Notes under the pieces: model-generated
Databases searched by the model: none
Seen by the model: the letters and a program-made list of their open reading frames with translations, nothing else
Told to the model about the DNA's origin: nothing
DNA from: Terriglobia bacterium
GTDB taxonomy: Bacteria > Acidobacteriota > Terriglobia > 20CM-2-55-15
Reading direction: 5' to 3'
DNA: 64,000 bases
NCBI GenBank assembly: GCA_965198225.1
Contig: CBDAOY010000007.1
Span: 990,045 to 1,054,044, forward strand
Part shown: in pieces, positions 3,001-64,000 of the stretch
Layout: each line of letters opens with the position of its first letter
Numbering within the stretch: position 1 is the stretch's first letter
Program-made: the position numbers and the translations under genes

Positions 3001-3161
3001 CCAACGTCTTGGGCTGGTTCCGTTGCTTGGCAGCGGTGCGAAGATCGAGAACCGGCTGGAGAATCGGGGTAGACCCGTCCAAACTGTGGGGTGAAATGCG
3101 GAGCACAGGACCGACCGTCAATGAATCAACTCTGTTATCAGCAGCTTACAGCTACGGGAAG

Positions 3162-25688: not shown

Positions 25689-25760
25689 CACGCTGCCGGC
25701 TGCCTTGATCGAAAGCGTGCTGCGTGATAGTTTTCATCCCGTACGTTACGGAGAATTCCC

Positions 25761-34683: not shown

Positions 34684-34704
34684 CCCAGACCGCTGCGGAG
34701 CATC

Positions 34705-34979
34705 CTAGTGACCTGTAACAGTGCTATCGGTACCAGCGTTCGGCGGAACGGCGTCGGATTCTAGGAGTGACGCTCGAGCCAATGCTGTTTCATTGCGAGG
34801 GCGTTGCGACACCGAAGACGGCGCCGTTCCGCCGAACCCTTCGGGCCGATGGGGGTTGCGGGCGATCTCTTTGTCGGAAGCCGTCACCGATGAAAGAGCA
34901 TCGCTTTCCGTCTCCCTCCTCGACCTCGCCCGCAAGACCCATCGGCGATGGTGCCGATAGCACTGCTACAGGCCACTAG
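34705..34979. mobile_element. 275-bp MITE-like element, copy 2
   Basis: It is about 97% identical to 25414-25688, with the same TIRs. Confidence 0.7.
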
Positions 34980-46746: not shown

Positions 46747-46843
46747 GGGTTTACTCCTCCGTCGACTATAGACAGGGCGGAGCGGCACGGGTTTAAGAGC
46801 GTTTTCAAATCGAATGAGGACCGCGTCCAGCGGTACGAGCTAG

Positions 46844-47558: not shown

Positions 47559-47864
47559 ATGCCTCGAAACTACATGACATATCCGTCCGGTCTGGTCCTG
47601 CAGGCAATCGCTTCGGGGCATCGGTATGGTTTCGATGTGATGGATGTGACGGGATTGCCGAGTGGTACGGTTTACCCGGCACTTCGGAAGCTGGAACGAG
47701 AGGGCTATGTCCGTTCCAGGTGGGAAGGCGAAGATGTGGCCCGCCAGGCAGGGCGTCCACCGCGGCGTTACTACGAGGTTAGCGGCCCTGGCTCGGCGGC
47801 CTTGACCCAGCTGCTGAAACGGTTTCCAGGACTGGCCCGGGCCCTTGCCGCGGAGGTCTTGTGA
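47559..47864 (+). CDS. PadR-family transcriptional regulator
   Basis: It has the winged-helix motif GYDV...GTVYPALRKLEREGYV. Confidence 0.85.
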   Translation: MPRNYMTYPSGLVLQAIASGHRYGFDVMDVTGLPSGTVYPALRKLEREGYVRSRWEGEDVARQAGRPPRRYYEVSGPGSAALTQLLKRFPGLARALAAEVL

Positions 47865-48452
47865 GGTGGGCAGGCGGCGAGCGGTCTCTCCGCGTCTGCC
47901 TGTTGTGGATTCGCGCTCTGTCGTTCCTCGTCCCGCCCCCGGGCCGGGACGAATGGATGCGGGAGTGGCGTGGCGAGCTTCTGCATCACTGGAGTGAGTT
48001 CGAGACAGGAGTTCAAAAGTCCCGTGCTGCAAGATTCGATTTGTTCCTACATTCGATGGGCGCCTTGCCTGATGCACTGTGTCTGCTGCGTCAGGAGTGG
48101 AGACTGGACATGCTGATGCAGGATCTGACCTATGCGGTACGGACGCTCGGCGCTCGACCGGGCTTCACCTTCGTAGTGATTTTCATTCTGGCGCTGGGTA
48201 TCGGGGCCAACACCGTCGTGTTCAGCGTCGTCGATGCCGTCCTGTTTCGACCCCTACCGTTTCCCGAGCCGGAGAGGCTGGTTGCGATCTGGGACGAAAA
48301 CACCCAAAAGTCGATGCTTCGTCAGGGTCCGGCGCCCGGCAATCTGCTGGACTGGCGTGACCAGTCACGGGTGTTCGATGGTATCGGAGCCTGGTACGCG
48401 GGCGAGCCCAGGACTGTGCGCGACGAGTCCAGTGCGGAGAAAGTGTCCGCCA
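47861..48452 (+). pseudogene. ADOP-type (MacB-like/FtsX) permease, N-terminal ~195 aa only; interrupted by a mobile element
   Basis: DLTYAVRTLGARPGFTFVVIFILALGIGANTVVFSVVDAVLFRPLPFPEPERLVAIWDE is the classic ADOP N-terminus. At ~48450 the reading frame runs into AT-rich foreign DNA and stops (..SATIGFYYV*). Confidence 0.7.
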
Positions 48453-48613
48453 CTATAGGATTTTATTATGTCTAATAATATCCATAAGTCTTATTTATAT
48501 CAACAGTATATCGTCCTAGACAATCCAGCGCCGTCTGGTATAATCCAAGCCTGTTGGGGGATATATTGGGGGAGTGCTGGAGTGCCTCTGCCCCATCGGT
48601 CGAGGGCTCTGCA

Positions 48614-49792
48614 ATGGCCATTCACAAACTCTCCCAACGCAAGGTAGACACCGCCGGTCCCGGCAAATACGAAGACGGCGGCGGGCTCCGCTTGGTGGTG
48701 TCCAATTCAGGCGCCAGGAGATGGGTCCTGCGTTACACCGTCCACGGCAAACGCCGGGAAATGGGTCTGGGCCGTTATCCCGATGTCGGGTTGGCCGATG
48801 CCCGCACGCAAGCGCTACGGCACCGGAGGCAGTTGGCGACGGGCGTAGATCCCATCGCAGCCCGCCGGGCGGCCCCGGAGACGCTACCCACCTTCACCAT
48901 CTGCGCCGCCCGGTATATCCGGGCCCATCGACGGAGTTGGCACAATGCCAAGCACGCGCGGCAATGGGTCCGGAGCCTGAAGACCTATGCCCGGCCCGTC
49001 ATCGGGGCCAAACGGGTCGACGCCATTGAGACTGAAGACATTGTAAAGATACTCTCTTCGATCTGGAACACCAAGACCGAAACGGCCAAGCGCGTGCAGG
49101 GGCGCATCGAAAATGTCCTGGACTTCGCCGCCGCGCACCAATACTGCGGTCCCCTGAACCCGGCCCGCTGGCGGGGCCATCTGGACAAGTTGCTCCCGAA
49201 GCCCTCCCGGGTGAAGCAAGTCACCCACCACCCGGCCATGCCGTATCCCGAGGTGGCGGACTTCCTGCAGGAGCTGTCCGGACACCGGAGTGTATCGGCG
49301 CAGGCGCTGCGGTTTTTGATCCTGACCGCCACGCGCACCAGTGAAGTCTTAGAGGCGCAGTGGCCGGAAATCGATCGGACCGCCGGTATATGGATCCTTC
49401 CCGCCTCCCGGATGAAAGCCCGACGGGAACATCGAGTTCCCTTATCGGATGCGACCCTGGCGGTTCTGGAAGACCTACCCCGCATGGCAGGCCACCCGTA
49501 TGTCTTCGCCGGATCTCGCCACGGACGCCCTCTGTCGAACATGGCCCTACTGAAATTGATGCGAGACATGGGATATTGCGTTGAGGGTTCCCGGGCTCAC
49601 TACGTGCCGCATGGATTTCGCTCCAGTTTTCGGGATTGGTCCGGCGAGGTGTCGAGCTTCCCGCGAGAAGTTGCGGAAATGGCCTTGGCCCACGTGGTGG
49701 AGAACAAGGTGGAAGCGGCCTACCGGCGGGGGGATCTGTTCGCCAAACGGCGCAGCATGATGCAGGCCTGGGCCGACTACCTCAAGAAGTAG
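48614..49792 (+). CDS. tyrosine-type site-specific integrase, phage P4-like (DUF4102 arm-binding N-terminus)
   Basis: It has KLSQRKVDTAGPGKYEDGGGLRLVV and the catalytic R...HGFRSSF...Y motifs. Confidence 0.85.
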   Translation: MAIHKLSQRKVDTAGPGKYEDGGGLRLVVSNSGARRWVLRYTVHGKRREMGLGRYPDVGLADARTQALRHRRQLATGVDPIAARRAAPETLPTFTICAARYIRAHRRSWHNAKHARQWVRSLKTYARPVIGAKRVDAIETEDIVKILSSIWNTKTETAKRVQGRIENVLDFAAAHQYCGPLNPARWRGHLDKLLPKPSRVKQVTHHPAMPYPEVADFLQELSGHRSVSAQALRFLILTATRTSEVLEAQWPEIDRTAGIWILPASRMKARREHRVPLSDATLAVLEDLPRMAGHPYVFAGSRHGRPLSNMALLKLMRDMGYCVEGSRAHYVPHGFRSSFRDWSGEVSSFPREVAEMALAHVVENKVEAAYRRGDLFAKRRSMMQAWADYLKK

Positions 49793-50066
49793 AAGGGCGG
49801 GTGCGCAAGGTCGACGGGCGGCCAACAATTCATGCATTCCGATGATTCCTTGAAGGAGCCCACTGCTTCCGAGGTGTGAAAGAATTCAGGCTGGTGCGGA
49901 TTCGACGCGGAAGTGGTCGGCGGAGTGAAAGGAGATGCGACAGAATCTGAGGATCTACGATTCCCGACCGAACCCCAGTGGGGCTAGTGTAGGCCGTCAC
50001 CAAAGGGCACCGCGGACTCGGTCGATGTGACTTTGATCAGGGAAAATCATGGACGGAACGGGTCCC

Positions 50067-50708
50067 TCAATGGATCGTCGGCTTCTCCACGCCGATGGTG
50101 GACAGTGCGTGTTGGCGGGCTCGCGTGCAGGCAACCACAACGGCATGAAGCTCTTTCTCCGCGATCCGTGAGAGTTCCCGCACGTTCTTGAGGCTCCGCG
50201 CCAGATCCATCTCCGAGCGCGACGATGTTCTCTCCAGACACTCCACCATGCTGTGCATCATGGCGTTGATCTCCCCGAGATTGTCCATGGCTTCGTGAGC
50301 CCGTTCGGGGAGATCCAGCACCTCCTCGGCACCGAACAGGCCGTCGATGAAACCTTCCAGCTCTTCCATGCGGGTGCGGCAGAGGCGACTCAGATCATCG
50401 AGCTCCGCCTTGGCGGCCATCGGTGTCAAACGGAACGGCCGGGTTCCCGATTGATGCTTTGCCAATTCGTTCCAGAGGCCCATGAGAGCCTCAAACAGCT
50501 CGTTGGCGGCAGCGACATCGTCAAACTTCGGCAGTTCTCCTCCCCAGAAAGCTGCTACGGTCGGGAGGGGCGACGCATCAAGATTGGGACTGGCGATGTT
50601 GCCGAGGAAGCGTGTGCGCACGACATGGAATGGAGTCGGACAGGCATAACCGTCCAATAGCCCGCGGACTCGTTCGTCGCCCTGATATCTGTGGGAACGT
50701 TTCTTCAT
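50067..50708 (-). CDS. YecA-like (UPF0149) family protein
   Basis: AAFWGGELPKFDDVAAANELFEALMGLWNELA resembles the UPF0149 N-terminal domain. Confidence 0.4.
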   Translation of the reverse strand: MKKRSHRYQGDERVRGLLDGYACPTPFHVVRTRFLGNIASPNLDASPLPTVAAFWGGELPKFDDVAAANELFEALMGLWNELAKHQSGTRPFRLTPMAAKAELDDLSRLCRTRMEELEGFIDGLFGAEEVLDLPERAHEAMDNLGEINAMMHSMVECLERTSSRSEMDLARSLKNVRELSRIAEKELHAVVVACTRARQHALSTIGVEKPTIH

Positions 50709-50795
50709 GCCCGATTAACTTCCGGCCGGCGTTGTGCCATTTCACCTTGTCCCTGCGGAAGCAGATTAGTCCGAAGAAGTTCGAGAATTTCCCGT

Positions 50796-51380
50796 TTACG
50801 TCCCACAGTTCTGGTAGTCCGAGGCCATACACGTGCGCGCCCACTCAATGGCGCGGCTGATCTGGGCACGGGTCATTTCACGTTCAAGGTTGCCCCGCGA
50901 CTCCTCGGGCCCAACGCCGGCGACGCTGACCCTCCCATTGGCGCTGGCGATATTGAACCACATGTGCGCGAGCACGTCGTCCTCGATGCCGCCCAAGCCG
51001 TTGTAGTACATCAACCCGAGGTTGAACTGCGCGCTCGCGTGCCCCTGCTCGGCCGCCATGCGGTACCATCGCGCCGCTTCCGCATCGTCTTCGATGACAC
51101 CCTCGCCGTGGGCATACATGGTTCCGAGATTGAATTGCGCACGCGCGTCCCCCTGCTCGGCCGCTATGCGGAACCACCGCATTGCTTCACGGTCATCCTC
51201 CATGGCGGCCTCGTCATCGTCGTAGGTGCTCCCGAGGCTGTCCGGCGTATCCGCGTTCCCCTGCTCGTCTTCGGCCTGAAAGCGTCCTGGTTCGTCCTGC
51301 GCCGGAACACATGCCGCGGCCAGCAGCCAGGAGCCGCAGAGCAGTGTCATCGCGATCCATCGGTTACGGTGTTTCTTCAC
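50796..51380 (-). CDS. Sel1-repeat (SLR) lipoprotein
   Basis: The lipobox is LLAAAC. There are three repeats of AxxWYRxAAEQGxAxAQFNLGxMY. Confidence 0.8.
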   Translation of the reverse strand: MKKHRNRWIAMTLLCGSWLLAAACVPAQDEPGRFQAEDEQGNADTPDSLGSTYDDDEAAMEDDREAMRWFRIAAEQGDARAQFNLGTMYAHGEGVIEDDAEAARWYRMAAEQGHASAQFNLGLMYYNGLGGIEDDVLAHMWFNIASANGRVSVAGVGPEESRGNLEREMTRAQISRAIEWARTCMASDYQNCGT

Positions 51381-51620
51381 GGCAGCCTCCCATGTCCTGG
51401 TGATCTTATGCCTTGAGACTGGATCGTCGATTGTAGGCGATCCAGGACGCGACCCTACAAGTACTTGGCGACTCTAGTGTAATGGGATCCGCAGGTTACG
51501 TTGCGTGCCGAACACGGATCACCGCTGGAGTGTGGACACAGCGGAAGGTTCACCGTGCCGACGGACGGGTAAGCCAGCCACCTTGAGCAGGATCATCTTG
51601 GGACGCCATCGGCGGCACAC

Positions 51621-51971
51621 CTAACGTCGGCGGCCGCAGGACACGAATATCTCCACGTCGGCCCTCAGCGCGCGCTCCGTGTTGTGGCTGAAGGCACCCC
51701 GGGCCGCTTTGAAGTAGGCGGCCAGTTGGTCCCCTGCCTCCGCAGCGTATTCAACACGGAACGAGAGCGTTCTCGAGCGGGTTGGTCTGCCCGATCGCCT
51801 TGTGCAGCGTGGCGATGCTGGAGACGTAGCGGCGCACCGTCGCCGGGGCCTTGACGCGCGCCATGTCGTCGATGAAGGCGACCAGGGTGGGGGCGTTGGC
51901 GGGCAACGCCGGCACGACCTGCTGCCGGCAGCCAGGATCTCCATCTCGCATGTCATCTCTGAAATCAGCAT
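51621..51971 (-). pseudogene. tyrosine recombinase N-terminal (SAM-like domain) fragment, frameshifted
   Basis: There are two overlapping frames (...LVAFIDDMARVKAPATVRRYVSSIATLHKAIG... and ...AAYFKAARGAFSHNTERALRADVEIF...). No catalytic domain follows. Confidence 0.3.
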
Positions 51972-52007
51972 CGGGCGGCCTCCGGTTCAGTCGAAAAAGG
52001 CCGCGAA

Positions 52008-52042
52008 TTTTACTCGCGATAATTCCAGTTATCGCGAGTAAA
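52008..52042. other. perfect inverted repeat TTTACTCGCGATAA-ttccag-TTATCGCGAGTAAA
   Basis: Seen directly. It lies next to the recombinase fragment. Confidence 0.6.
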
Positions 52043-52611
52043 GCCCCGAGATAACGCTTTCCTCGCCGTTGATCACACGGCGCGGCGGATTTTTTTCGAT
52101 CCGGCGCCTGCTGCCCATCAGCTCAGGGGGGGCGGGACGCAACGAGGTCTGTCTACCGAACGGGGGAGTTGTGGTGCCTTCTACGGCCCGAATGAGCGCG
52201 ACCAGATATCGCCAGCGAACCGGAGAAAGGGACATCGACTTGGCAGAACACCGTGAAATCGCGGCGTCACGCGTCACAGGGATAGACACGAAAGCGGTGG
52301 CGAAGGACTGAGGTGGCCGTATCGATACGGTCGTGGCGGCGCGCTCACCCGCAGCCGTGGCTGCGCCGATGATTTGTCCATGGGGCGATCCGCCGCGTGA
52401 CCGCAAGCCGCTGGCGATGAGTGCCTGCCCGGTTCACGGAAATCGGGCTATGGGCTCTGCCGTGCAGCGCCGCCCGCCTGTTCCGTGCCGAGCCCGTTGG
52501 CAGGACATGAGCAGTTTCGCCGCCGATACCGTCGATCAACGTGCGACCGTCATCACCGGTCCCCGGGTGTCGGTCCGCGGACGTCAATTCACAAGGGCGA
52601 CGCGCTACCGC

Positions 52612-53751
52612 ATGCGCGTGCTCTCTTTTTCGCTGCAAGGCCTTAAAACCGGGTTATTTCTGCTATTCGCATCACTGCTGGCCGTGTCGGCGCCGATTCA
52701 GGCCAGCGCGCAGGCGAACAGCCCTCCGGCGGTGACGGGGCCAACCAGCGTCGACTACGCCGAGAACAGCGAGGAGACGGTGGCCACGTATATCGCTACG
52801 GACCCGGAGGCCGAAGCAATCGCGTGGAGCGTGTCCGGGACGGACCATGCGCTGTTTTCCATCACTGCGGGTGTCCTGGAGTTCCTGAGCCCGCCGAACT
52901 ACGAGAGGCCTATCGACGAGGGCGAAGACAACGCGTATGAGGTGGGCGTCACGGCCACGGATTCCTCCGGGGCGGCCGCCACCGTTGCGGTCACCGTGAC
53001 GGTAACAGACGTCAACGACCCGAACATCGTCCTCATCATGGCGGACGATGTCGGTTATGAGGCCTTTGGGGCATACGGTAGCGCACAGTACAGAACGCCG
53101 CGAATTGATGAGCTTGCAGCCGCGGGAGTTCGCTTCACGAACGCTTACTCAAACCCGGTATGCACCCCGAGCAGAGTTGCCTTGATGACGGGTAAGAGCA
53201 GTGTCAGGAACTATGTGGATTTCGGAGTTCTACTCCCCGGAGAATACACGATTACTGATCTCTTTAGTGGGGCCGGATACGCAACGGCCATCGCCGGAAA
53301 GTGGCAGCTTCACGGTAGTGTCGTAGGTAGTGACGTAGTGGCTGGTGTCCCTGCCGGAACCGGATTCGACACGTATTCCTTGTGGAATACAGCCAACACG
53401 GGTCGTAGTCGCTACTGGAATCCTTCCATCGAACGCGACGGTGAAATCATCGATCTGGGCAGCGAGGATTACGGGCCCGACATATTCACGAATTTCCTGC
53501 TGGAATTCATAGAGTCCAACAGAGATAAACCGTTTTTCGCCTACTACCCGATGGTGCTTCCTCATGATCCGTTCGGCTCGCCGCCGCAAGCCCAATGCGT
53601 CGATACCGCTGACGGACAGTGCAATTTCGAGGACATGGTCGCGTATCTCGATTACAACGTCGGCCGCATACGCGACAAGCTGGCGGACCTGGAGCTACTC
53701 GACAACACAATCCTCATATTCACCTCCGACAACGGAACTCACGCACGCTGA
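52612..53751 (+). CDS. giant surface protein, segment 1: signal peptide + cadherin-like domain + sulfatase N-terminal half
   Basis: It has a signal peptide (LFLLFASLLAVSAPIQASA) and a cadherin repeat ending VTDVNDP. The sulfatase motifs are IVLIMADDVGYE and the formylglycine site CTPSRVALMTGK. The frame ends in TGA at 53749-53751, inside a cacgcacgc repeat. Confidence 0.75.
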   Translation: MRVLSFSLQGLKTGLFLLFASLLAVSAPIQASAQANSPPAVTGPTSVDYAENSEETVATYIATDPEAEAIAWSVSGTDHALFSITAGVLEFLSPPNYERPIDEGEDNAYEVGVTATDSSGAAATVAVTVTVTDVNDPNIVLIMADDVGYEAFGAYGSAQYRTPRIDELAAAGVRFTNAYSNPVCTPSRVALMTGKSSVRNYVDFGVLLPGEYTITDLFSGAGYATAIAGKWQLHGSVVGSDVVAGVPAGTGFDTYSLWNTANTGRSRYWNPSIERDGEIIDLGSEDYGPDIFTNFLLEFIESNRDKPFFAYYPMVLPHDPFGSPPQAQCVDTADGQCNFEDMVAYLDYNVGRIRDKLADLELLDNTILIFTSDNGTHAR

Positions 53752-56700
53752 TCTGATTTCAGAACTCGGGGGAGAAATGATCCATGGGGATAAGAACATG
53801 CCCAACAATGGCGGCACGCGGGTACCGCTGATAGTCAGCGTTCCAGGAGGTGAGGGGGGACGGGTGTTCGACGACCTGATCGACTTCACCGACTTTCTCC
53901 CGACTCTGGCTGATGCGGCAGGTCTTACGATTCCTGACGTCAATATGCTGGACGGCGTGAGTTTTTGGGACAGGCTTCAAGGCCGAACCGGCCAACCGCG
54001 GGAATGGATATATACCTATTACTTCCCACGTCCGTTCGCCGATAGGTTCGACAATCCGCAACGTCATCCAGAGGCGTCGTATGTCCGAGACAAGCGGTAC
54101 CAGCTCTACGGAACAGGAGAGTTCTTCGACATTTCCGTAGACCCTCACCAAGTGCATCCGTTGCCGAGTGACGATGAAGAGTCCAGCGCCGCCCGTACCA
54201 AGCTGCAAGCGGTTCTCGACTCGATGCCGGGGAGAGGTGAGGAGATTTACCCATATTTGATAGGAACTGTCCCGGACTCTGAGCCGCGCCCGCGATGGCG
54301 GCCCGTCCTGTCGAAAGCAACTGTGAACGGCGGCCAATTGACGCTCACTTACGCCGGAATTCTGGACTCAAGAGAAGCGCCTCCCGCAGATTCCTTCATT
54401 GTGAACGTTGATGGTTCCGAGCGTGCGGTCTCCACAGTTTCGATAAGCAAAACAGCGGTTACGCTTACACTCGCTTCGGCGGTTACAGTTGGCCAGACGG
54501 TGACGTTGAATTACACGCCGGGAACGAATGCGATTCAGCACGCGAACAGGCCATTCGGGCACAAAGCGGCACCCCTGGTTCGCCAAGGGGTGACGAACAA
54601 CACTGTGGACACGACGGCGCCGGCGGTGTTGTCGATCACGAGCGACGCGACGCACCCGACGAAGAACGCTTTCACGGTGACGATAACCTTTTCGGAGGAG
54701 GTGAGGGGACTCACGGCGGGGGAGATCGCGGTCACCAATGGCACGGGCTCGAACTTTGCGGGCACAGGCGCGAGCTACATGCTCGACATCGAACCCAGCG
54801 ACGATATCGAAGCCGACGTGACGGTCCGGGTTCCGGCCGATGCGGCGATGGACGCCGCGAACCTCGGCAACATCGAGGGGATCGAGACCTTCGCGGTGGA
54901 CACCCAGGCGCCGGCGGTGTTGTCGATCACGAGCGACGCGACACACCCGACGAAGGATGCTTTCAGGGTGACGATCACCTTTTCGGAGGCGGTGACGGAG
55001 CTCACGTCGCAGGATATCGCGGTCATGAACGGAGTGGGCTCGAACTTCGCGGGCACGGACGCGCGCTACACGCTCGACATCGAGCCCAGCGCCAATACCG
55101 AAGACGATGTGACGGTCCGGGTTCGGGCCAACGCGGCGGTGGACGGCGTGAACATCGGCAACGTCGAGGGGATCGAAACCTTTGCGGTGGACACCCAGGT
55201 GCCGAGGGTGTTGTCGATCACAAGCGACGCGGCGCACCCGACGAAGGATACTTTCACGGTAACGATCACCTTTTCGGAAGAGGTGACGGGGCTGACGGCG
55301 AGTGAGATCGTGGTCAGCAATGGCCGTGGCTCGAACTTCGCGGGCACGGGCGCACGCTACACGCTCGACATCGCTCCGAACGCCAACCTTGAAGCCGATG
55401 TGACGGTCCGGGTTCGAGCCAACGCGGCGGTGGACGGCGCGAACAACAGCCACGTCGACGAGGGCGAGACCTTCGCTGTGGACACGCGGGCACCGGTGTT
55501 GATGAGCGCTGCGGTGGATGGCGACACGCTGACGCTGAGCTATGGGGAGGCGCTGGGCAACCCGACACCGGAGCCGGGCGATTTCACGATGAATGTGGAG
55601 AGCGCTGGGCGGAGCGTTTCCAGGGTGGCGGTGAGCGGAAGAGCGGTGACTTTGACGCTTGCCTCGGCCGTGGCGCATGGCGAGACGGTGAGAGTGAGCT
55701 ACAGCCCGGGGACGAACCCGATCCAGGACGCGGTGGGCAACCAGGCTCTGGGACTGAGCAACGCGTCGGCCACCAACACTACGGATGCACCCAACACGGA
55801 TCCGATGATCACGAGTCCGGGGCCGTTCAATGTCACTGAGAATCAAGCGCGGGTGACCCGGCTGATGGCGGCCGACGCCGACCCGGGGGACGAGGTCACC
55901 GGCTATACGCTTGTCGGCGGAGCCGATCGGGCCCAGTTCACGGTCGGTGAGGATACCGGAGATCTGGGCTTCCGGGCGGTTCCGAACTTTGAAGCGCCCA
56001 CGGATGCCTTCAGTAACGATCCGCCAAGTGGGGCAGGAGACAACGAGTACATCGTGGTGGTCCAGGTCAGCAGCGGGGCAGGAACGCGGGTGCGGACGGC
56101 GGAACAGACGATTCGCGTGCGGGTGAGTGACGTGGAGGAGCTTCCAGCGGCGCCGGAGGAGCCGACTTTTCCGAGGGCGACGCCGGACAGCCTGACGGTG
56201 GCGTGGACGGAGCCGGACAACACCGGGCCGCCCATCACCGGCTATGACGTGCAATACCGGGAAGGCGTCAGCGGCGGCTTCACGGATGCGCCGCACTCCG
56301 GGACGGCCCAAACCACAACGCTCATGGGGTTGAGCGAGGGCACGGCCTACCAGGTGCAGGTGCGGGCGAGGAACGCGGAAGGAACAGGTGACTGGTCGGA
56401 GCCGGGCGAAGGACGGACCGTGGCCCCGCTGAGGGTTCGGATGACGCCGGAGCTGGAGCCGCCGGTGGAGGGCCCGTTCTCGGTGAGGTTCAGCTTTTCG
56501 GAGACGGTGACGGGTTTCAGCGGAAGCGACATCGAGACGGGTCAGGACCTTGCCTGCATGGACGATCAGAACAACCCGGTGTTCTGCAACCCCGGCTTTG
56601 CGGCATTCGAGACCACGGATAGCCGGGTCTTCACCACCCGCGTGACCCCGAGGACCGGCGGGGTGGCCAATAACTACAAGCTCACGCTCACGGTGCGTGC

Positions 56701-58837
56701 CGGCGGAGTGAGATCGTCTGTCGGCAATAAGCCTAACGAGGAGGCGACGCTTGAGGTGCCGGTGGCGCCGCCGGGGGTGACGGTGCCGATCGGGCCGCTG
56801 GGGCTGACGGCGAGCGGGGGAAACGGCCAGGTGGCGCTCCGGTGGAATGCCCCGGGGGACACCGGGGGCGCCGCGATGGTCCGCTACGAATACCGGGTGG
56901 CGGATGGCGTCGGCGGGGAGTTCGGCGCCTGGATGCGGGTGGATGCGGCGGCGAGGTCCGCGCCGGTCCCCGATCTGACGAACGGCCGGGAATACGTCTT
57001 CGAGCTGAGGGGGGTGAACGCCCTGGGCTACGGCGGGGTGGAGACCGTGCGAGCCACCCCGGTGCGCACCACCACCGGGGACGGAGGAGGCAGAGGAGGC
57101 GGCGGGGGTGGGGGCGCCCTCCGCGGGACAGTGCCGGGCGCGCCGACGAACCTGACGGCTGAGGGCGGGGACGGCCAGGTCGTACTGAGTTGGGACGCCC
57201 CGGAAAGCGACGGCGGGGCGGCGATCACCGATTACGAGTATTGGAACGGCGGGAGTCGGACCTGGACCTCCATCGGTTCCACGAACACCACCCATACGGT
57301 CACCGGCCTCGACAACGGAACGGAATACACCTTCCAGGTGCGGGCGGTCAACCGAAGGGGCCGGAGCCGGGCTTCCAACCGGGCTACGGCGACGCCGGAC
57401 GTGTTTATCCTGGACTTTGCGCATTTCGCCAATGGCGCGTCCATTACCTCCGATCTGGTGCTGGTGAACCCGGGAAGCATCCCGATCCGGCCCGTCGTTT
57501 ATTTCTACGACACCGGGGGCAATCCAATTAACGCCGAATCGGTGGTGGACGTCACCGGTGATCTGACGGTCGCCGAGGACGGTGCCTTGACGGTCCTGGC
57601 GGATATGGAGCCACTCAGAGAACTCACGATTGCGACCCACGGTCGGGGAGCGCTCGTGAGTGGATCGGTGAAGGTTGTCTCTTACGGTCCTGTCGGCGGG
57701 TTCCTGCGCTATAACGTCCCGGATGTCGGCGTGGCCGGTGTGGGAGCGAGCCCGCCCACACGGGATGTCCTTTTCCCGGCCCGCCGCGAGGCGGGAGGCA
57801 TCAATACGGCGGCGGCGATCCAGAACCTGGGAGAGGCACCGCTGGAGGTGAGCTGCCGATTGATGCGCGCGGGCGCGGTGCTGGAAGAGGCGGAGATCGC
57901 TCTTGCGCCCAACGGGCAGTCGAGTGTCTTTATCGACGAACAATTCCCCGCCACCGATACGTCCGACTTCGCGGGGTCGATGCACTGCGACGCCCCAGCG
58001 ACGTTCACCGGTGTGGCGGTCGAGATGGATGCTGTCCACCGCATCTTTACGGCACTGCCGGTGGTTTCCGCGGATCGGCTCAGCGGCGGCAGTGCGACGG
58101 TCCTGGACTTTGCGCATTTCGCCAATGGAGGTTCCATCACCTCCGATCTGGTGTTCGTGAATCTGAAGACCCGTCCGAGCGGGCCCGCGCCCACTCCCTT
58201 TCAGATGGCCATCCCTCCGAGCCGCCCTGCCATCCATTTCTACGACACGGAGGGCAATCCGATGGCGACCGAATCGGTGGTGGACATCACCGGCGATCTG
58301 GAAGTCACCGAAGACGGCGCCCTGACGGTCCGGACGGAGATGGAGCCCTTGGGCGTGCTCACGATTTCGACTCACAGCCGGGGCGATCTGGTGACCGGAT
58401 CGGTGAAGGTGGTCTCGGAGGGTCCCATCGGCGGGATGCTCCGCTTTGACCTCCCCGGCATCGGCGAGGCCGTGGTGGGGGCCAGCGAGCCCCTCAGCGA
58501 CTTCCTCTTCCCGGTGCGCCGCCAGGAGGGAGGCATCAACACGGGGGTCGCGATCCACAACCTGGAATCGAGTCCGGAGTTGGTGCGCTGCGAACTGCTG
58601 CGCGAGGGCGTGCTGCTCGATACCGTGAGCATCCCTCTTGAGGCCAACGGGCAGACCTCCGGGTTCATCGACGGGCGATTCCCCAGCGTCGATACGTCCG
58701 ACTTCGTGGGGTTGGTACGCTGCAATGCAGTCGGTGAGGGGCTCTTCAGTGCCGTCGCCCTGGAACTGGATGCCGCCAACCGCATCTTTACCACACTGCC
58801 AGTGATCCCGCTGCAAGAGACGATGTCTCAGGAATAG
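53738..58837 (+). CDS. giant surface protein, segment 2 (frameshift continuation of segment 1)
   Basis: It continues in the -1 frame as ...THADLISELGGEMIHGDKNMPNNGGTRVPLIVSVPG... (the sulfatase C-terminal half). This is followed by Ig-like repeats (TQAPAVLSITSDATHPTKDAFTVTITFSEEV...), three fibronectin type III domains, and two ~230-aa C-terminal repeats (LDFAHFANGxSITSDLV...). The intact gene product would be ~2070 aa. Confidence 0.7.
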   Translation, partial: LTHADLISELGGEMIHGDKNMPNNGGTRVPLIVSVPGGEGGRVFDDLIDFTDFLPTLADAAGLTIPDVNMLDGVSFWDRLQGRTGQPREWIYTYYFPRPFADRFDNPQRHPEASYVRDKRYQLYGTGEFFDISVDPHQVHPLPSDDEESSAARTKLQAVLDSMPGRGEEIYPYLIGTVPDSEPRPRWRPVLSKATVNGGQLTLTYAGILDSREAPPADSFIVNVDGSERAVSTVSISKTAVTLTLASAVTVGQTVTLNYTPGTNAIQHANRPFGHKAAPLVRQGVTNNTVDTTAPAVLSITSDATHPTKNAFTVTITFSEEVRGLTAGEIAVTNGTGSNFAGTGASYMLDIEPSDDIEADVTVRVPADAAMDAANLGNIEGIETFAVDTQAPAVLSITSDATHPTKDAFRVTITFSEAVTELTSQDIAVMNGVGSNFAGTDARYTLDIEPSANTEDDVTVRVRANAAVDGVNIGNVEGIETFAVDTQVPRVLSITSDAAHPTKDTFTVTITFSEEVTGLTASEIVVSNGRGSNFAGTGARYTLDIAPNANLEADVTVRVRANAAVDGANNSHVDEGETFAVDTRAPVLMSAAVDGDTLTLSYGEALGNPTPEPGDFTMNVESAGRSVSRVAVSGRAVTLTLASAVAHGETVRVSYSPGTNPIQDAVGNQALGLSNASATNTTDAPNTDPMITSPGPFNVTENQARVTRLMAADADPGDEVTGYTLVGGADRAQFTVGEDTGDLGFRAVPNFEAPTDAFSNDPPSGAGDNEYIVVVQVSSGAGTRVRTAEQTIRVRVSDVEELPAAPEEPTFPRATPDSLTVAWTEPDNTGPPITGYDVQYREGVSGGFTDAPHSGTAQTTTLMGLSEGTAYQVQVRARNAEGTGDWSEPGEGRTVAPLRVRMTPELEPPVEGPFSVRFSFSETVTGFSGSDIETGQDLACMDDQNNPVFCNPGFAAFETTDSRVFTTRVTPRTGGVANNYKLTLTVRAGGVRSSVGNKPNEEATLEVPVAPPGVTVPIGPLGLTASGGNGQVALRWNAPGDTGGAAMVRYEYRVADGVGGEFGAWMRVDAAARSAPVPDLTNGREYVFELRGVNALGYGGVETVRATPVRTTTGDGGGRGGGGGGGALRGTVPGAPTNLTAEGGDGQVVLSWDAPESDGGAAITDYEYWNGGSRTWTSIGSTNTTHTVTGLDNGTEYTFQVRAVNRRGRSRASNRATATPDVFILDFAHFANGASITSDLVLVNPGSIPIRPVVYFYDTGGNPINAESVVDVTGDLTVAEDGALTVLADMEPLRELTIATHGRGALVSGSVKVVSYGPVGGFLRYNVPDVGVAGVGASPPTRDVLFPARREAGGINTAAAIQNLGEAPLEVSCRLMRAGAVLEEAEIALAPNGQSSVFIDEQFPATDTSDFAGSMHCDAPATFTGVAVEMDAVHRIFTALPVVSADRLSGGSATVLDFAHFANGGSITSDLVFVNLKTRPSGPAPTPFQMAIPPSRPAIHFYDTEGNPMATESVVDITGDLEVTEDGALTVRTEMEPLGVLTISTHSRGDLVTGSVKVVSEGPIGGMLRFDLPGIGEAVVGASEPLSDFLFPVRRQEGGINTGVAIHNLESSPELVRCELLREGVLLDTVSIPLEANGQTSGFIDGRFPSVDTSDFVGLVRCNAVGEGLFSAVALELDAANRIFTTLPVIPLQETMSQE

Positions 58838-58873
58838 ACGGACGCGCCTGACAGGCTAGGCGACGGCGTCGCC

Positions 58874-59803
58874 ATGAGCTTCGAACCGGGCGTCGACGCC
58901 CAACGCGGGAGAGCCCGAGTCAGGGGGGCACGGACCACGGCATGCCTGGACGGTTCACGGCGCGCCGGCGGTAGACATCCGATCCGTGGACACCGTGGGC
59001 CGGGGGCGCCCCCGGATGCATACCGGAGGCCGGCGGGGGTCCATCATGCCTGGGATGACTGTGATGTCGATGTTGCCGTGCTCGGTCGCGTGCCTCGTCG
59101 CAGCCGGCATCCGCGGTGTTGCGGAATGGCTCCACGCGTTGAGGCTCGACGACAGCTCGCGCTGGCTGGGCCCATCCTCCGAAAACCTCTGCTATCCGTA
59201 TCGCGAAAGGCGCTGGCCTCCGGCGAGCCGGAAGATCCCCCCGGCTGGGAACGGATCTATGAAGGCTCGTTCCTGGAAGCAGCGCTGGTCACACAGCTTT
59301 CCGGCGACTTTCCCGGCCCGGTGCTGGCCGTGGTTTCGGTGCCCTTTTACTCGGCAGACCGGCAGCGGATTTTAGTCCCGCGAGGGGCGCGAGTCGTGGG
59401 CACGGCTCAGGCCGTGGCGAATCAGGACCAATCGCGCCTTGCCGTCAGTTTCCACCGTTTGATCTATCCGGACGGGCGTTGGGTGTCGCTGGAATTCAAC
59501 GGCCTCAATCAGGTCGGCGAGGGAGCCTTGAAAGATCAGGTCAACCGCCATTACCTATCCACGTTCGCCGCAGTCGGCGCGGTCGGCATCCTGAGCGGGC
59601 TGACCTTGCGCGGCTCCAATCCCTATGGCGGCGGGCAGCAGAGCCTTCAGGCTGGGGCCGGACAAGGGCTCGGCCAGGCCGCGACGCGCATCCTGGATCG
59701 TTTCCTGAATCGTTTGCCCACCCTCACCATTCGGGCCGGGCATCGGCTTCGCGTTTGGTTCACTTCCGACGTGCTGGTTCCCCGGCCCCAACAAGGAGAT
59801 TGA
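58874..59803 (+). CDS. VirB10/TrbI-family protein, C-terminal core domain only (possibly truncated)
   Basis: The C-terminal ~190 aa is LAVVSVPFYSADRQRILVPRGARVVGTAQ...RLIYPDGRWVSLEFNGLNQVGEGALKDQVNRHY...PTLTIRAGHRLRVWFTSDVLV. The upstream ~100 codons are Arg-rich and not protein-like, so the true start is uncertain. Confidence 0.55.
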   Translation: MSFEPGVDAQRGRARVRGARTTACLDGSRRAGGRHPIRGHRGPGAPPDAYRRPAGVHHAWDDCDVDVAVLGRVPRRSRHPRCCGMAPRVEARRQLALAGPILRKPLLSVSRKALASGEPEDPPGWERIYEGSFLEAALVTQLSGDFPGPVLAVVSVPFYSADRQRILVPRGARVVGTAQAVANQDQSRLAVSFHRLIYPDGRWVSLEFNGLNQVGEGALKDQVNRHYLSTFAAVGAVGILSGLTLRGSNPYGGGQQSLQAGAGQGLGQAATRILDRFLNRLPTLTIRAGHRLRVWFTSDVLVPRPQQGD

Positions 59804-59804
59804 A

Positions 59805-60722
59805 ATGAAAATGTACCGAAAAGCCTTCACCGTTGTTGTCATGGTTCCGATCCTCATCATGCTCACCACCACGCCCGCGCATGCCCTCTTCGGCTCGATC
59901 CTTGCGGGCATCCAACGCGCCCAGATGATCGCCAATCAGGGGATCCAGATCTACAAGGACACAATGGCGAAGATCACCCTGGACGGCCAATTGACCCAGA
60001 TGACGGATCAGTTCAACCACCTGCAAGAACAGGCGCTCGGAAGTGTCGGGGCGCTCACCGATCCGTTTACGCAGTTGGCTTCGGTGCCGACGCAGTTCAT
60101 CGGCGTGGGTCTCGCGTGGAAGAACGATTTTACCGGCGTTGCCGCGGAGCTTGTCTCGTCGGTGGAACAGATGGGCGAAACCGGCACGAGCTTTACCGAG
60201 TCGTGGCGTGATCGGCTCACCGCCGCCGACACGGTGACTGAGAGCGACATCATTGGTCTGTACAACTCTCAGCGGCCCGAAATGGCCCAGAGAGCGGCAC
60301 GGGGCTACCTTGCGGCGCGAGAGGAAGGCGAGAAACGCCTGGTCCTCGATCACGCCACGAGCGATGCGGCGGCGAATCTCATGATTGCGGCGCGTGAGGC
60401 TGTGGCCTCCTACGAAGGACTGCGAAACAACACCAATACTTCCAACACCGCGCTCGCTCAATCGCAGGTGGCCGGGACCCTGACCCAGGGGAACCTCACC
60501 GCGGCCATGGCGCAGTTGATGGCGTTCGATACAGCAAAGGCGGCAGCGGAAGATTACGAACGCGAGATCGCCCGGCGCGACGCGCTGGCGGAATGGGTCG
60601 AGGCCCAGCGCCGCGCGCGCGTCACCTTCGACGCGCAACAGGCCGGGCTCGATGCCCGGCGCGATGCGATGCGGGAAGGGTTGCTCTTCCAGATTCATCC
60701 GTTCTATCGCGGCGGGAACTAA
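59805..60722 (+). CDS. TrbJ/VirB5-like secreted conjugal transfer protein
   Basis: It has a signal peptide, is helical and Q/A-rich, and sits in the position before the trbL-like gene. Confidence 0.5.
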   Translation: MKMYRKAFTVVVMVPILIMLTTTPAHALFGSILAGIQRAQMIANQGIQIYKDTMAKITLDGQLTQMTDQFNHLQEQALGSVGALTDPFTQLASVPTQFIGVGLAWKNDFTGVAAELVSSVEQMGETGTSFTESWRDRLTAADTVTESDIIGLYNSQRPEMAQRAARGYLAAREEGEKRLVLDHATSDAAANLMIAAREAVASYEGLRNNTNTSNTALAQSQVAGTLTQGNLTAAMAQLMAFDTAKAAAEDYEREIARRDALAEWVEAQRRARVTFDAQQAGLDARRDAMREGLLFQIHPFYRGGN

Positions 60723-60734
60723 CCCGGTACGCCG

Positions 60735-61736
60735 ATGCAAATCCAACTCGACCCGGCGATCCCGGCCCAGGTCCCCCCGGAGCAGCTTCGGGATTTCAAG
60801 TCGTTTCTCGATACCGTTCTCGAGGGAATCATCGGCCCGGCGGCCAACCCTCTGCTGGAGACCGGAAACCTGCTGTGGACAGGGTTAGCCGCAATCGTGG
60901 TGGTGTTGACCGGCGCGAAGATCGCGTACAGCGGGAACATTCAGCCGTGGGACATCGTCCGGCTCGTCATCGGTCTGTGGGTGCCGTGGGTCATGTTGCA
61001 GTTCTACTCGACGCCCATCCCGGGGCTGGTCTTCACGTTCCCGGGGGTCATCACGGCGGGCGGGAATTGGTTGCACAATTTCTTGCTTGCGGACACGGCC
61101 TGGTCCATGCATAGCGAACTCGGAAACCTCGTCACCAACCTCGCGGAGGATCTTCAGGTGCAAGCGAATCAGGGGAGTATTCTCGGCGTGCTCACCGGCG
61201 GCGCTCACGCCGTGCTGACGCTCGTTGCCGGAGCCGTCATCATGCTGTTCGTCGTGACCTGTCTCGTCGTTTTGTTCGCGGTTACCTACGCTCAGGTGAT
61301 CTGGGCCCAGATCGCCCTGGCGATCCTCACGCTCCTGGGTCCGATCTTCATTCCCTGGCTGGTGTTTGAGCCGATGAGCTTCATGTTCTGGGGATGGTTC
61401 CGGGCGATGCTGACGTATTCGCTCTACGCCGTGATCGCCGGGGCCGTCATGCGCGTGTTTTCCGGCGTGGGCCTCGCCTACGTCACGACCCTGGGCACCG
61501 CCCAACTCAACTGGCAGTCCATTGGCGATCTCGGTTTGTGGCTCCTGGCGGTCCTGCCCCTGTTCGTGGCCGGGATCCTGTCATCGCTCAAGTGCGGGGA
61601 GCTCGCCTCGATGCTCGTCACCGGTGCCGGTGCATCGGGAAGCGGGCTCATGGGCATGGCGGGGATGGCGGGAACGGTTGCCACCGGCGCCAGCGTGCGC
61701 GCGGCCGCGAAAGCGGGGGCGGGAGGTCTGAAATGA
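60735..61736 (+). CDS. TrbL/VirB6-like polytopic membrane protein with a Gly-rich C-terminus
   Basis: It has multiple TM helices and the C-terminal tail GAGASGSGLMGMAGMAG. Confidence 0.55.
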   Translation: MQIQLDPAIPAQVPPEQLRDFKSFLDTVLEGIIGPAANPLLETGNLLWTGLAAIVVVLTGAKIAYSGNIQPWDIVRLVIGLWVPWVMLQFYSTPIPGLVFTFPGVITAGGNWLHNFLLADTAWSMHSELGNLVTNLAEDLQVQANQGSILGVLTGGAHAVLTLVAGAVIMLFVVTCLVVLFAVTYAQVIWAQIALAILTLLGPIFIPWLVFEPMSFMFWGWFRAMLTYSLYAVIAGAVMRVFSGVGLAYVTTLGTAQLNWQSIGDLGLWLLAVLPLFVAGILSSLKCGELASMLVTGAGASGSGLMGMAGMAGTVATGASVRAAAKAGAGGLK

Positions 61737-62404
61737 GCAAGAAGGAAACCCAAGACGCCGGGGTCGAATACGCCGAAATCTGGGGCGAGGCCATCCACGC
61801 GAACCACCACCTGCGGGTGCTCTCTGTCGGGCTGGGGGCGTTGTGCCTGTTGCTCGTCATCGTCGTCATCCGCATCGTGTCGGTCGCTCCCCCGCGCCCC
61901 ATCGTCGTGCGGGTGGATGAAGTCGGCCGCGCCGAGGCCGTCGCCTATGAAGCGATGGAGGCCCAGGCGGACCCCCTCGACCCCACCACCAAATACTTTC
62001 TCAATCGCTTTATCTATGACTTCTACTCCCGGCGGCGGGCCACGGTCGAAGAGAACTGGTCCCGGAGTCTGCGCTTCCTAACGACGGAACTTGCCGGTGC
62101 CTCGTTCCGGGCCGAGAGCCAGAACATCGCCCTTCTCGCGGCGGGCGCGGCGCGGGATGAACTGCAAGTGGATCGCGTCGTTTTGCGGATTCAAGCCAAC
62201 CCCCGGGAGCCCCACAGCGCGACGGCCGATTTCGATCTGGTGCGGCTGGTGGCGCAGAACGAAGTGGGCCGGGAACGCTGGACCCTCTCGCTTCAATTTC
62301 TGTTCCTCGATGAGATCCCGCCGGACCTGATCGTCCACAACCCGATGGGGATCGTGATCACCTATCTGCAAGGAGATCGGGCGATAGTCAGCGGCGAACC
62401 ATGA
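61732..62404 (+). CDS. TrbF/VirB8-like protein (N-terminal TM helix + NTF2-like periplasmic domain)
   Basis: It has an ATGA overlap with trbL-like. The matching motifs are PIVVRVDEVGRAEAV, FIYDFYSRRR and NPMGIVITYLQ. Confidence 0.55.
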
Positions 62405-63345
62405 TGATCGAGCATTTGCGGGGGAGGGAGCAAAAACTGGAACCGCTCGGTTGGACAGGGCGCGATGCGGAATGGATCGCGCTGGTGTGTTTGCATAGTG
62501 GCGTTTTCACCCGCGCACAATTCTGTTTCTACTTTGATACCCGCCGCGACCGCGCCCATCGGTTTGTACAGGCATTGGTGAAGCGGAGGTCGGCGGTCGA
62601 AACCGATGCCCTCACCTTCAATGGAGGAGGGAAGACGTGCCGGATATCGAGCAAACCGATCTACCGGGCGCTGGGGGTCGAGAACATCCGCCACCGCCGA
62701 AAAGCCCAACCGCCGGTGGTGATGCGGCGGCTCCTATCGCTGGATTTCGTTCTGGAACATCCGGGCATGAACTGGCTTCCCGCCGAGATGGAAAAGGTCG
62801 AGTTTTTTGACGGGCTCGGCCTCTCGCGGCGGTTGATTCCCCGCCGGATTTATTACGGGGCCGTGGGGGCCCAGAAACGCTACTTTGCGCTCAAACTTCC
62901 CCTTGCCGTGGACGCTCGAACCGTCACCTTCGCCTACGTCGATCCGGGGCACAGTACCGCTTCGGAATTGCACTCCTGGGGAGCCGCGCATGGGCCGCTT
63001 TGGGATGCGCTGCGGAAGACGGGGCGGCAGGTCCGGGTGATCGCCATTGCCGCCGAAAACAAGACGGTCGAGCGGGCGGAGCGGGTGTTGCGCGCATGGG
63101 CGGCGGCGGTCCCAGGGGAGCCCAGCGAGGAGCTGACGGTGAAGCGGGAAATCAAGGCGATTGACGAAGCGATGACCCACAAAGACCGGGAATTTCTGGC
63201 CCGGTACGGGGGATTCGGTGGAGCCATGAAACGGTCCGCGGCGCTCCAAAGTCTGCCCGAAGCGAAGGTGACGGAAGGGGTCTCGATTGACGACTACGGG
63301 ACGTGGTTTGCGGAGCGTTTTGCCGGTCCCGAAGGAATACTGTAA
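62401..63345 (+). CDS. hypothetical protein (314 aa, basic), last gene of the T4SS-like cluster
   Basis: The ORF is in the track and no family is recognised. It has an ATGA overlap with the upstream gene. Confidence 0.4.
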   Translation: MMIEHLRGREQKLEPLGWTGRDAEWIALVCLHSGVFTRAQFCFYFDTRRDRAHRFVQALVKRRSAVETDALTFNGGGKTCRISSKPIYRALGVENIRHRRKAQPPVVMRRLLSLDFVLEHPGMNWLPAEMEKVEFFDGLGLSRRLIPRRIYYGAVGAQKRYFALKLPLAVDARTVTFAYVDPGHSTASELHSWGAAHGPLWDALRKTGRQVRVIAIAAENKTVERAERVLRAWAAAVPGEPSEELTVKREIKAIDEAMTHKDREFLARYGGFGGAMKRSAALQSLPEAKVTEGVSIDDYGTWFAERFAGPEGIL

Positions 63346-63370
63346 TGGGGTTCAAAAGCAATGGGAAATG

Positions 63371-63656
63371 TGGCAGGATTCGAGGGATTTTTTCTTGCAA
63401 CACCTTCCGATCCAGGATGCAACACCCTCAGAGAGGGGGGTGTTGCAGGATTCGGACAAAAGGTGTTGCAATGCCACATCCTCCTATCTCCTTAATTCTT
63501 TTTTGGTTATCCCATACCAATCGGCCTCCACCGTGCCGATCCAGCGAAATCGGGGAGGACGATAGCGACCCCCCTAAAAAGCGCGGGGTCATGTGGCCCG
63601 GATAGAGGCGAGGTGTTGCACGCCTCTATCCGGCCCCATGAGGGTCGCTATCGTCC
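63371..63656. promoter_or_regulatory. iteron cluster (five copies of GGTGTTGCA / TGCAACACC, two GCAGGATTCG) plus a nested inverted repeat (outer 15-bp arms, inner 16-bp arms); candidate oriT or replication/regulatory origin
   Basis: The iterons are at 63395, 63417, 63439, 63461 and 63612. The outer IR GGACGATAGCGACCC (63558-63572) pairs with GGGTCGCTATCGTCC (63642-63656). The inner IR GGCCCGGATAGAGGCG (63595-63610) pairs with CGCCTCTATCCGGCC (63621-63635). Confidence 0.5.
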
Positions 63657-64000
63657 TTAATTGATCCCTGCGGGAAGGCTCGGAAAACGCCCCCAACGGG
63701 GGCCTTGACGGAAGGGAGACAGACCTATGAAATGGCGTCGATTCATCCCTCATATCCTTCTGTTTTTCGGCGGTCTCGGCTACGCCGTGTGGAGCTTTGT
63801 CCGGCGTCCCTTCCCCATGCTTGGCCGGGCGCATGAGAAGCGCCTGGAGCCAGGCGTTCTTGAGCATGACGCCCACGGCGCGGGCCAGCGCCGGATTGAT
63901 ACCGGCGGGCATGTTCAACGCCAGCACCTTGCCCCCCTCGATCAGTTCATAGAGTGGGGGCAGATGGCGCGGCCCCTCGATTCGTTCCTCTTCGACCGGC

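Follow-up and report, generated by a model that had tools for sequence, protein, structure and literature searches.

Islands of the P4/CP4-57 type usually insert into the 3' end of tRNA or tmRNA genes. Integrative and conjugative elements (ICEs) represent a different kind of traveler; they have already been reported in Acidobacteria, and decayed, multi-copy conjugative clusters have been described in Orientia tsutsugamushi (Guglielmini et al. 2011, PMC3158045). Here, we have tried to make sense of one stretch of 64,000 nucleotides (contig CBDAOY010000007.1, positions 990,045 to 1,054,044; the whole of it is called the window below) from a member of the Terriglobia in the Acidobacteriota, in which an ADOP permease gene runs into an island with a P4-type integrase and, farther to the right, genes of a type IV secretion system (T4SS) appear. 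We hold, with considerable confidence, that this region makes up the left ~15.5 kb of a decaying composite, that is, a P4-type island in the ADOP gene together with an unrelated ICE fragment. A preliminary description, made from the letters of the window, had read all of it as probably one partly degraded ICE; the T4SS block is indeed degraded ICE material, but the P4-type integrase is not the integrase of that ICE.

The window was compared with DNA stretches from other contigs and genomes (L001 to L070). The contigs behind the region are long-read metagenome assemblies of 4-18x, and the region itself is rich in insertion sequences (ISs) and ICE repeats. The exact integrase protein is present on two ENA metagenome contigs, one of 2,784,501 bp (L001; 18x) and one of 48,990 bp (L002 and L064), and L065 is from a 7x contig of the same sample as L001. 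For the uninterrupted ADOP site, we used two relatives reached by a search with the ADOP fragment, L066 (~72% nucleotide identity) and L067 (~91%). The right attachment site (attR) was read from L068, on the same 2.78-Mb contig as L001 (ctg587049), and from L069, from a third sample. On the ICE side, L004 is an intact family member, L070 is a fuller copy in the window's own genome, and L060 is from another genome.

The left end of the island, with its left attachment site (attL), is made up as follows (window positions).

47559-47864, + strand: PadR-family regulator of the chromosomal flank, upstream partner of the ADOP gene (PF03551, E=6e-10; syntenic in L066)
47861-48475, + strand: 5' fragment of the ADOP permease gene, an open reading frame (ORF) of 204 aa (TIGR03434 positions 1-111 of 803)
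48436-48453, + strand: attL core GGAGAAAGTGTCCGCCAC, 18 bp, repeated at attR
48454-48613, + strand: the island's AT-rich arm and leader, upstream of the integrase, which can be aligned with the leaders in L060, L005, L012 and L015
48614-49792, + strand: P4-type tyrosine integrase, 392 aa, intact (PF13356 E=7e-24, PF22022 E=3e-27, PF00589 E=5e-15)

Residues 1-198 of the ADOP fragment are genuine permease, and the six further codons and the stop come from element DNA: homology (tblastn) to P0122, one of two full-length orthologues (the other is P0124), ceases at window position 48454, which is residue 198, and GC content is 33% over 48455-48540 against 61% for the whole window. The insertion target is ADOP codon ~193-198. 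What is left of the gene scores 111 bits against TIGR03434 (cut-off 622) and falls short of the full-length duplicated MacB_PCD/FtsX architecture. The preliminary description had the PadR-ADOP pair continuing to ~48450, the permease ORF running into AT-rich DNA and stopping there, and a P4-type tyrosine integrase following, and all of this stands.

Where, then, is the rest of the gene? A 698-aa ADOP remainder (P0362, found in the 90% cluster of the closest orthologue) lies at L068 10001-12097, preceded by an AT-rich element end and by GGAGAAAGTGTCCGCTAC (L068 9976-9993), which sits directly before it and has 17 of its 18 bases the same as the attL core; the genes beyond the remainder are syntenic with L067 at 92% identity. 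In the empty site of L067, the core GGAGAAAGTGTCCGCCAC is found once. The direct repeat at both junctions, with a single copy in the empty site, marks these 18 bp as an att core, and the core and AT-rich end that precede the permease remainder argue for site-specific integration. Both L066 and L067 have the same upstream genes and then an uninterrupted ADOP gene, an ORF of 117-119 aa (o117), a Peptidase_M14 gene and an AMP-binding gene. In L060, this core and leader adjoin an unrelated flank that is not ADOP, so the core belongs to the attachment site of the element itself (attP); the expected circular attP junction of the island is AACAATAACATATATC-GGAGAAAGTGTCCGCCAC-TATAGGATTT. In other words, an element with a P4-type integrase integrated site-specifically into the ADOP gene, as had been proposed, and the proposal now has a direct repeat, a defined attR and relatives without the insertion behind it. 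No second copy of the core (attR) was found in the window, L001 or L064.

The window shares its ADOP/integrase junction, at >99.9% identity, with two other contigs (L001 and L002) that come from two samples, which rules out an assembly join at 48454; the preliminary description had named such a join near 48450, together with an intact permease gene elsewhere, as what would undo its reading.

We infer that the insertion inactivated the permease gene. The ADOP site would be a secondary target resembling the usual one of the integrase. The only tRNA gene of the window is at 3161-3248, with none within 45 kb of the junction, and no Rfam family matches near the junction (a scan of 47-64 kb gave a single chance-level match and no other RNA family). 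Two scans of JGI metagenome contigs, one with core plus leader and one with a degenerate leader pattern, turned up no other insertion sites.

As for the integrase itself, its three Pfam domains are Arm-DNA-bind_3, Phage_int_M and Phage_integrase, and it also matches the integrase family phrog_1. Against PRK09692, it scores 158 bits, below the cut-off of 434, so that the similarity there is at the level of domains only. The catalytic Arg...His-x-x-Arg...Tyr set is present by eye (TATRTSE, PHGFRSSFR, LAH, AAYRRGD).

A few observations on the relatives may be set down here. The ADOP gene of L066 is frameshifted into three ORFs (208, 94 and 632 aa). L067 has lost the PadR gene and about 85 codons from the start of ADOP (9772-10001), so the ADOP locus was damaged independently in that lineage. 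At the non-ADOP junction of L060 (3880-3960), a Shine-Dalgarno sequence and an ATG before the core make a short ORF, MKEEVSATIGFYDIQQYP; the stretch VSATIGFY in it is found again as the read-through tail of the ADOP fragment in the window. Finally, an integrase at least 90% identical to that of the window (P0387, one of the set P0386-P0395) and an intact 892-aa ADOP orthologue (P0370) are each recorded on a contig of 2,036,740 bp, which suggests a relative with the island elsewhere and the ADOP gene whole.

The other half of the argument is about the T4SS genes and the module that follows them, which are, from left to right, these.

59221-59803, + strand: 3' part of the VirB10/TrbI gene, residues ~268-462 of a 462-aa protein (PF03743; tblastn)
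59805-60722, + strand: protein in the TrbJ/VirB5 position, 305 aa, signal peptide, intact (between VirB10 and TrbL in ~45 loci)
60735-61736, + strand: TrbL/VirB6, intact (PF04610)
61733-62404, + strand: VirB8/TrbF, intact (PF04335; start codon at 61733 with a ribosome-binding site)
62401-63345, + strand: o314, conserved ICE protein of 314 aa (61 loci in GTDB genomes)
63396-63470, unstranded: TGCAACAC(C) in four copies, of which two are direct and two inverted (repeat analysis)
63556-63657, unstranded: conserved nested hairpin, an invariant outer stem with two inner hairpins (fold)
63727-63824, + strand: first ~33-35 codons of the VirD4 coupling protein, right end of the collinear ICE remnant (alignment)
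63823-64000, - strand: internal piece of VirD4 in inverted orientation, from residue 517 to residue 117 (alignment)

Window 59221-63824 (4.6 kb) corresponds to L070 6821-11425 at 94.9% identity, and position 59221, where the blastn match to this paralogous ICE starts, is the left breakpoint of the remnant. The VirB10 of L004 aligns to the window (tblastn) for residues 272-462 only, so the C-terminal core that had been recognized at the outset is all there is. TrbL and VirB8 were also rightly named, and the TrbJ-position protein, which has no Pfam, NCBIfam or PHROG match, owes its name to position and signal peptide only. At the right, the inverted VirD4 fragment runs ~1 kb past the window end, and IS elements follow; residues 1-35 (+ strand) and 117-517 (inverted) are what is left of VirD4. 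VirB3, VirB4, VirB9, VirB11 and the ICE's own integrase are absent from the remnant. The VirB4 of L004 has no tblastn match in the window, L064 or L001, and no relaxase domain was found in the scanned ORFs of the window or L004 (~21 kb examined; up to 10 kb left of o314), while o314 and o300 are without a family assignment. VirB4 and an intact VirD4 are missing from the ~21 kb after attL, an absence that the preliminary description had itself named as counting against an ICE. Exact-protein look-ups matched only the integrase read from an ATG start, a 225-aa TrbI and cluster members; o314, TrbJ, VirB8, the integrase read from a TTG start and P0241 were without a match.

What does a whole element of this kind look like? 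Synteny mapping and Pfam scans of L004 give the order of an intact ICE: an ArdC-like metallopeptidase, two ORFs of unknown function, VirB3, VirB4, VirB9, VirB10 (462 aa), the TrbJ-position protein, TrbL, VirB8, o314, the repeat/hairpin, VirD4, VirB11 and an integrase. A scan of GTDB genomes for o314 found 61 loci, all but two of them (59) in long-read metagenome-assembled genomes of Acidobacteriota (Terriglobia, Bryobacterales) and the other two in Longimicrobiales and Latescibacterota, with up to ~9 loci on a single contig (Terriglobia CBDCKA010000002.1). The order VirB10-TrbJ-TrbL-VirB8-o314 is conserved in ~45 loci, and the order VirB10-TrbJ-TrbL-VirB8 is therefore native and not, as had been supposed, the product of rearrangement; for the accompanying idea that insertion of a giant gene truncated VirB10, we found no evidence. 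The order trbG-I-J-L in RP4 resembles the sub-order VirB9-VirB10-TrbJ-TrbL of this family. The intact ICEs end in a tyrosine integrase of another type (in L070, an HTH_17 excisionase-like gene precedes it), and at none of the 61 loci does an intact ICE end in a P4-type integrase. The T4SS genes of the window are the remnant of an MPF_T-type, multi-copy Acidobacteriota ICE and not an ICE driven by the P4-type integrase. Our search of the literature found no description of this Acidobacteriota ICE family. Some of its copies are paired head to head, integrase against integrase and a few hundred bp apart (L009, L010, L018 and L027; ~14.7-21 kb).

The repeats and nested inverted repeats behind the T4SS genes, noted from the start, are present at 63396-63657. 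The protein before them, o314, has 3173 homologues and no match in Pfam, NCBIfam, PHROGs, PDB sequences or PLSDB plasmids, and its AlphaFold (AF2) model has a mean pLDDT of 49. The hairpin folds as DNA at -41.6 kcal/mol (z=-7.7); its outer stem is invariant over 14-18 bp, and an inner hairpin shows compensatory changes. A motif of 8-9 nt occurs in four copies upstream and once in the hairpin loop (in the window, this fifth copy of TGCAACAC is at 63613-63620), and when window 63396-63657, L004 10990-11290 and L012 10960-11100 are compared, the repeat and the loop change in step by ICE lineage: TGCAACAC in the window, L070 and L060, TGTTCCAC in L004 and TGTGACA in L012. Such covariation suggests a lineage-specific DNA-binding specificity, possibly that of o314. 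The repeat/hairpin would be a protein-recognition site and possibly an origin of transfer (oriT) recognized by o314, and we propose that o314 may bind the repeats downstream of its gene.

If the P4-type integrase does not belong to the ICE, what is its connection with it? Three other islands, with integrases 44-45% identical to that of the window, each interrupt an ICE copy (L005 11154-11175, L012 11135-11156 and L015 11129-11150; left ends only), and their points of entry agree to the base: each follows GACGATAGC in the outer stem of the hairpin that separates o314 from VirD4. The ICE backgrounds differ (there are different repeat motifs and at least two backgrounds), and so does the cargo, which is a TonB receptor, a Kelch protein and a Fur regulator in one and a STAND NTPase and a helicase in another. 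One hairpin position, with differing backgrounds and cargo, points to integrative islands in their own right, for which the ICE serves as a target. In L060, a leader and core of the window type lie ~6 kb from an orthologous ICE remnant (95% identity, the same TGCAACAC motif), separated from it by MmeI-type restriction-modification cargo, and o314 is truncated there to residues 222-314. Island and ICE remnant may thus have been associated before the insertion into ADOP took place.

The two halves of the ADOP gene are found together on only one contig, ctg587049, where the 5' part is at ~46.7-47.3 kb and the 3' part at 1,987.8-1,989.9 kb, on the same strand. There, attL and attR are 1.94 Mb apart and do not enclose a single contiguous segment of island size. 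Forward orientation is recorded for L001 as well as for L068; L069, in contrast, is flagged reversed, and it reproduces the arrangement on the attR side in a contig of the third sample. Fragments of IS21-like and IS256-like elements adjoin attR, and beyond the attL-side block come an IS4-like element, an IS256-family element and further DDE transposases. A single inversion is ruled out as the cause of the separation, since it would have left the halves on opposite strands; we favor at least two repeat-mediated rearrangements. With the ends 1.94 Mb apart, no discrete element remains. The preliminary description had put the element at more than 15.5 kb, and its remainder does lie outside the window, but the element is not simply a larger one.

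The block behind attL is itself coming apart. L001 joins window position 53622 directly to VirD4 residue 268, a deletion of 10.9 kb on an 18x contig; L065 is 100% identical to the window across 53695-59926; and L064 has an extra IS of ~2 kb that is missing from L001. Within the population, then, the structure of the locus is polymorphic. All of the TrbJ, TrbL, VirB8 and o314 genes are nevertheless full length, with ratios of nonsynonymous to synonymous change (Ka/Ks) against L070 of 0.08-0.24, which makes the truncation recent relative to the divergence of the window and L070.

The P4-type integrase recombined an 18-bp core common to the island and the ADOP gene, leaving attL at 48436-48453 and attR before the 698-aa permease remainder. 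The island reads, from the left, as an integration module (arm, integrase, a conserved partner protein called o213 and a Sel1-repeat protein), a frameshifted giant gene and the 4.6-kb ICE remnant (VirB10'-TrbJ-TrbL-VirB8-o314-hairpin-VirD4'). That remnant has lost everything left of VirB10 codon ~268 as well as VirB11 and its own integrase, and inversion has rearranged the left-over VirD4. Because of the IS insertions, the 10.9-kb deletion polymorphism and the 1.94 Mb between attL and attR, the island presumably cannot conjugate and probably no longer excises as a unit.

Could the whole be a single ICE after all, with the P4-type integrase as its own, inserted in the ADOP gene and with a T4SS operon that a giant gene rearranged and truncated? 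Integrase, cargo and T4SS genes are physically contiguous behind attL, and L060 has the same leader near the same ICE lineage; yet the family natively has this gene order, another integrase stands at the end of its intact members (with the P4 type there in none of the 61 loci), and relatives of the P4-type integrase interrupt ICE copies separately, with unrelated cargo. We regard this explanation as quite improbable and, indeed, largely refuted. A working integrative mobilizable element, in which o314 and the repeat/hairpin are kept as a transfer origin on which complete ICEs of the same genome act in trans, is somewhat easier to imagine, given that o314, the hairpin and all five TGCAACAC repeats have stayed intact, with the specificity motif of L070 in that genome, that Ka/Ks is low and that L060 has the same association. 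It is still unlikely: the o314 of L060 is down to residues 222-314, the co-existing variant L001 lacks the entire module through deletion, attL and attR no longer bound a contiguous stretch, and the transfer roles of o314 and hairpin are putative. A broader idea, which we entertain only tentatively and think doubtful, is that a clade of P4-type islands hitchhikes on the ICE, either by inserting in the outer stem of the hairpin (the candidate oriT) or by carrying a captured o314-hairpin module, so that they ride along or are mobilized, and that the window copy landed at a look-alike site in the ADOP gene, one that shares 12 of 20 bases with the hairpin arm in an alignment made post hoc.

The distance between attL and attR invites two further explanations. 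One would put attP on a circular molecule of ~1.94 Mb (a chromid or second chromosome) that the integrase fused into the ADOP gene. The two halves do share the + strand of ctg587049 (46.7 kb and 1,987.8 kb), a geometry unobtainable by a single inversion; however, the neighbors of attR look like ordinary chromosomal genes, the IS debris at both inner ends fits repeat-mediated rearrangement, and repeated copies of ICEs and ISs abound in the genome, so that we consider such a fusion very improbable. The other would make the 48454 junction or the 1.94-Mb separation an artefact of chimeric joins at repeats, as one might fear with 4-18x long-read metagenome contigs in a region full of IS and ICE repeats. 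This we judge decidedly unlikely, because the attL junction is the same in the window, L001 and L002, the attR side is the same in L068 and L069 (two samples), the duplicated core is a biological signature, and two independent mis-joins would be required.

The decaying composite that we prefer has its own difficulties, and they should be put together. Full-length genes with low Ka/Ks mean that the ICE remnant is either young or still useful. L060 raises the possibility that island and remnant travel together rather than forming an accidental mosaic. No excisionase of the island was found. A simple decayed island does not predict att sites in direct orientation 1.94 Mb apart, a spacing that calls for two rearrangements or more, for integration on the scale of a replicon or for a faulty assembly, and our view of that contig covers L001 and L068, with ~1.9 Mb in between.

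Between the integrase and the T4SS genes lies the following cargo.

50067-50708, - strand: 213-aa protein (o213; sub-threshold UPF0149 match only, E=0.021)
50796-51380, - strand: secreted Sel1-repeat protein (PF08238, E=8e-25)
52009-52022 and 52029-52042, unstranded: perfect 14-bp inverted repeat, TTTACTCGCGATAA and TTATCGCGAGTAAA, with a 6-nt spacer (sequence)
52612-58837, + strand: giant surface-protein gene, ~2075 codons if repaired (Pfam domains)

Not all of the names first given to these features survive. The YecA-like protein is o213, whose UPF0149 match stays below threshold; a homologue (71% identity) adjoins the related integrase in L005. The Sel1 lipoprotein does have Sel1 repeats, a signal peptide and a lipobox-like LAAAC and is a possible lipoprotein. 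The supposed recombinase fragment at 51.6-52.0 kb has no Pfam match even with E allowed up to 1 and none by tblastx among the 70 loci, and the inverted repeat next to it is real, at 14 bp rather than 13. The giant protein, described as a single cadherin-sulfatase-Ig-FN3 protein of >2000 aa, has these domains (signal peptide, Ig-like, sulfatase, SGSH_C, SWM repeats, three Big_12, cadherin, three fn3 and two C-terminal repeats) but not the single ORF, since a frameshift near 53745 splits the gene into overlapping ORFs at 52333-53751 and 53564-58837; the frameshift is identical in three assemblies (window, L002 and L065). Homologues of the C-terminal repeat domain adjoin ICE fragments in three other genomes (L047 597-998, L048 3366-5094 and L063 9105-9290), and giant-protein-like genes may be recurrent ICE-associated cargo or may be there by chance.

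Two things elsewhere in the window may be of use to others. A gene at 45589-46788 (- strand) encodes a secreted deiodinase-like protein (PF00837) with C-terminal EF-hands and has an in-frame TGA at 46552-46554, in the context FASYT-[TGA]-GPF, where gene callers split it; this TGA probably encodes selenocysteine. Relative to L001, the EF-hand part of the gene contains, in the window, a tandem duplication of 333 bp with a change of frame. There is also a repeat of ~278 bp that resembles a miniature inverted-repeat transposable element, with terminal inverted repeats of ~34 bp (CTAGTGACCTGTAACAGTGCTATCGGTACCA…), at window 25414-25689 and 34702-34979; extra copies at other sites in the 91%-identical L067 (76-348, 2484-2759 and 9315-9424) show that it moved recently.

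Taken by itself, the case in the window is routine: a gene inactivated by an island and a dead conjugative fragment. It is also an entry point to an unnamed ICE family that is widespread and multi-copy in soil Acidobacteriota and that has a conserved protein with >3000 homologues and no Pfam family, as well as a lineage-specific repeat/hairpin module. The islands that target the ICE and the far-apart att sites are, to our minds, more interesting leads than the decaying island, and the ~1.9 Mb between the two halves of one gene make a convenient marker of large-scale rearrangement in an uncultured lineage.

How does all of this compare with what has been described? Like the P4/CP4-57-type islands, the island of the window has a three-domain integrase with an N-terminal arm-binding DUF4102, next to attL and behind an AT-rich arm, and a short core duplicated at both junctions, and the cargo of its relatives is varied and includes defense genes. 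Unlike them, it sits inside a protein-coding gene, which it destroys, its relatives target an ICE hairpin, and its att sites are no longer adjacent. With the MPF_T ICEs and plasmids (RP4 Tra2, Ti trb, the Tn4371 family), the Acidobacteriota family shares VirB3, VirB4, VirB6/TrbL, VirB8-VirB11, VirD4, ArdC and a tyrosine integrase; it differs in having VirB8 after TrbL and a 314-aa protein and repeat/hairpin between VirB8 and VirD4 and in its up to ~9 copies per contig, whereas the window retains a 4.6-kb fragment only. The closest parallel for the decay is the set of clusters in Orientia tsutsugamushi, where, as here, one genome holds many copies of one conjugative element and several of them are pseudogenized or truncated. 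The difference is that many of the Acidobacteriota copies look complete and that decay among them is coupled to ISs and to a second class of element, the integrase islands.

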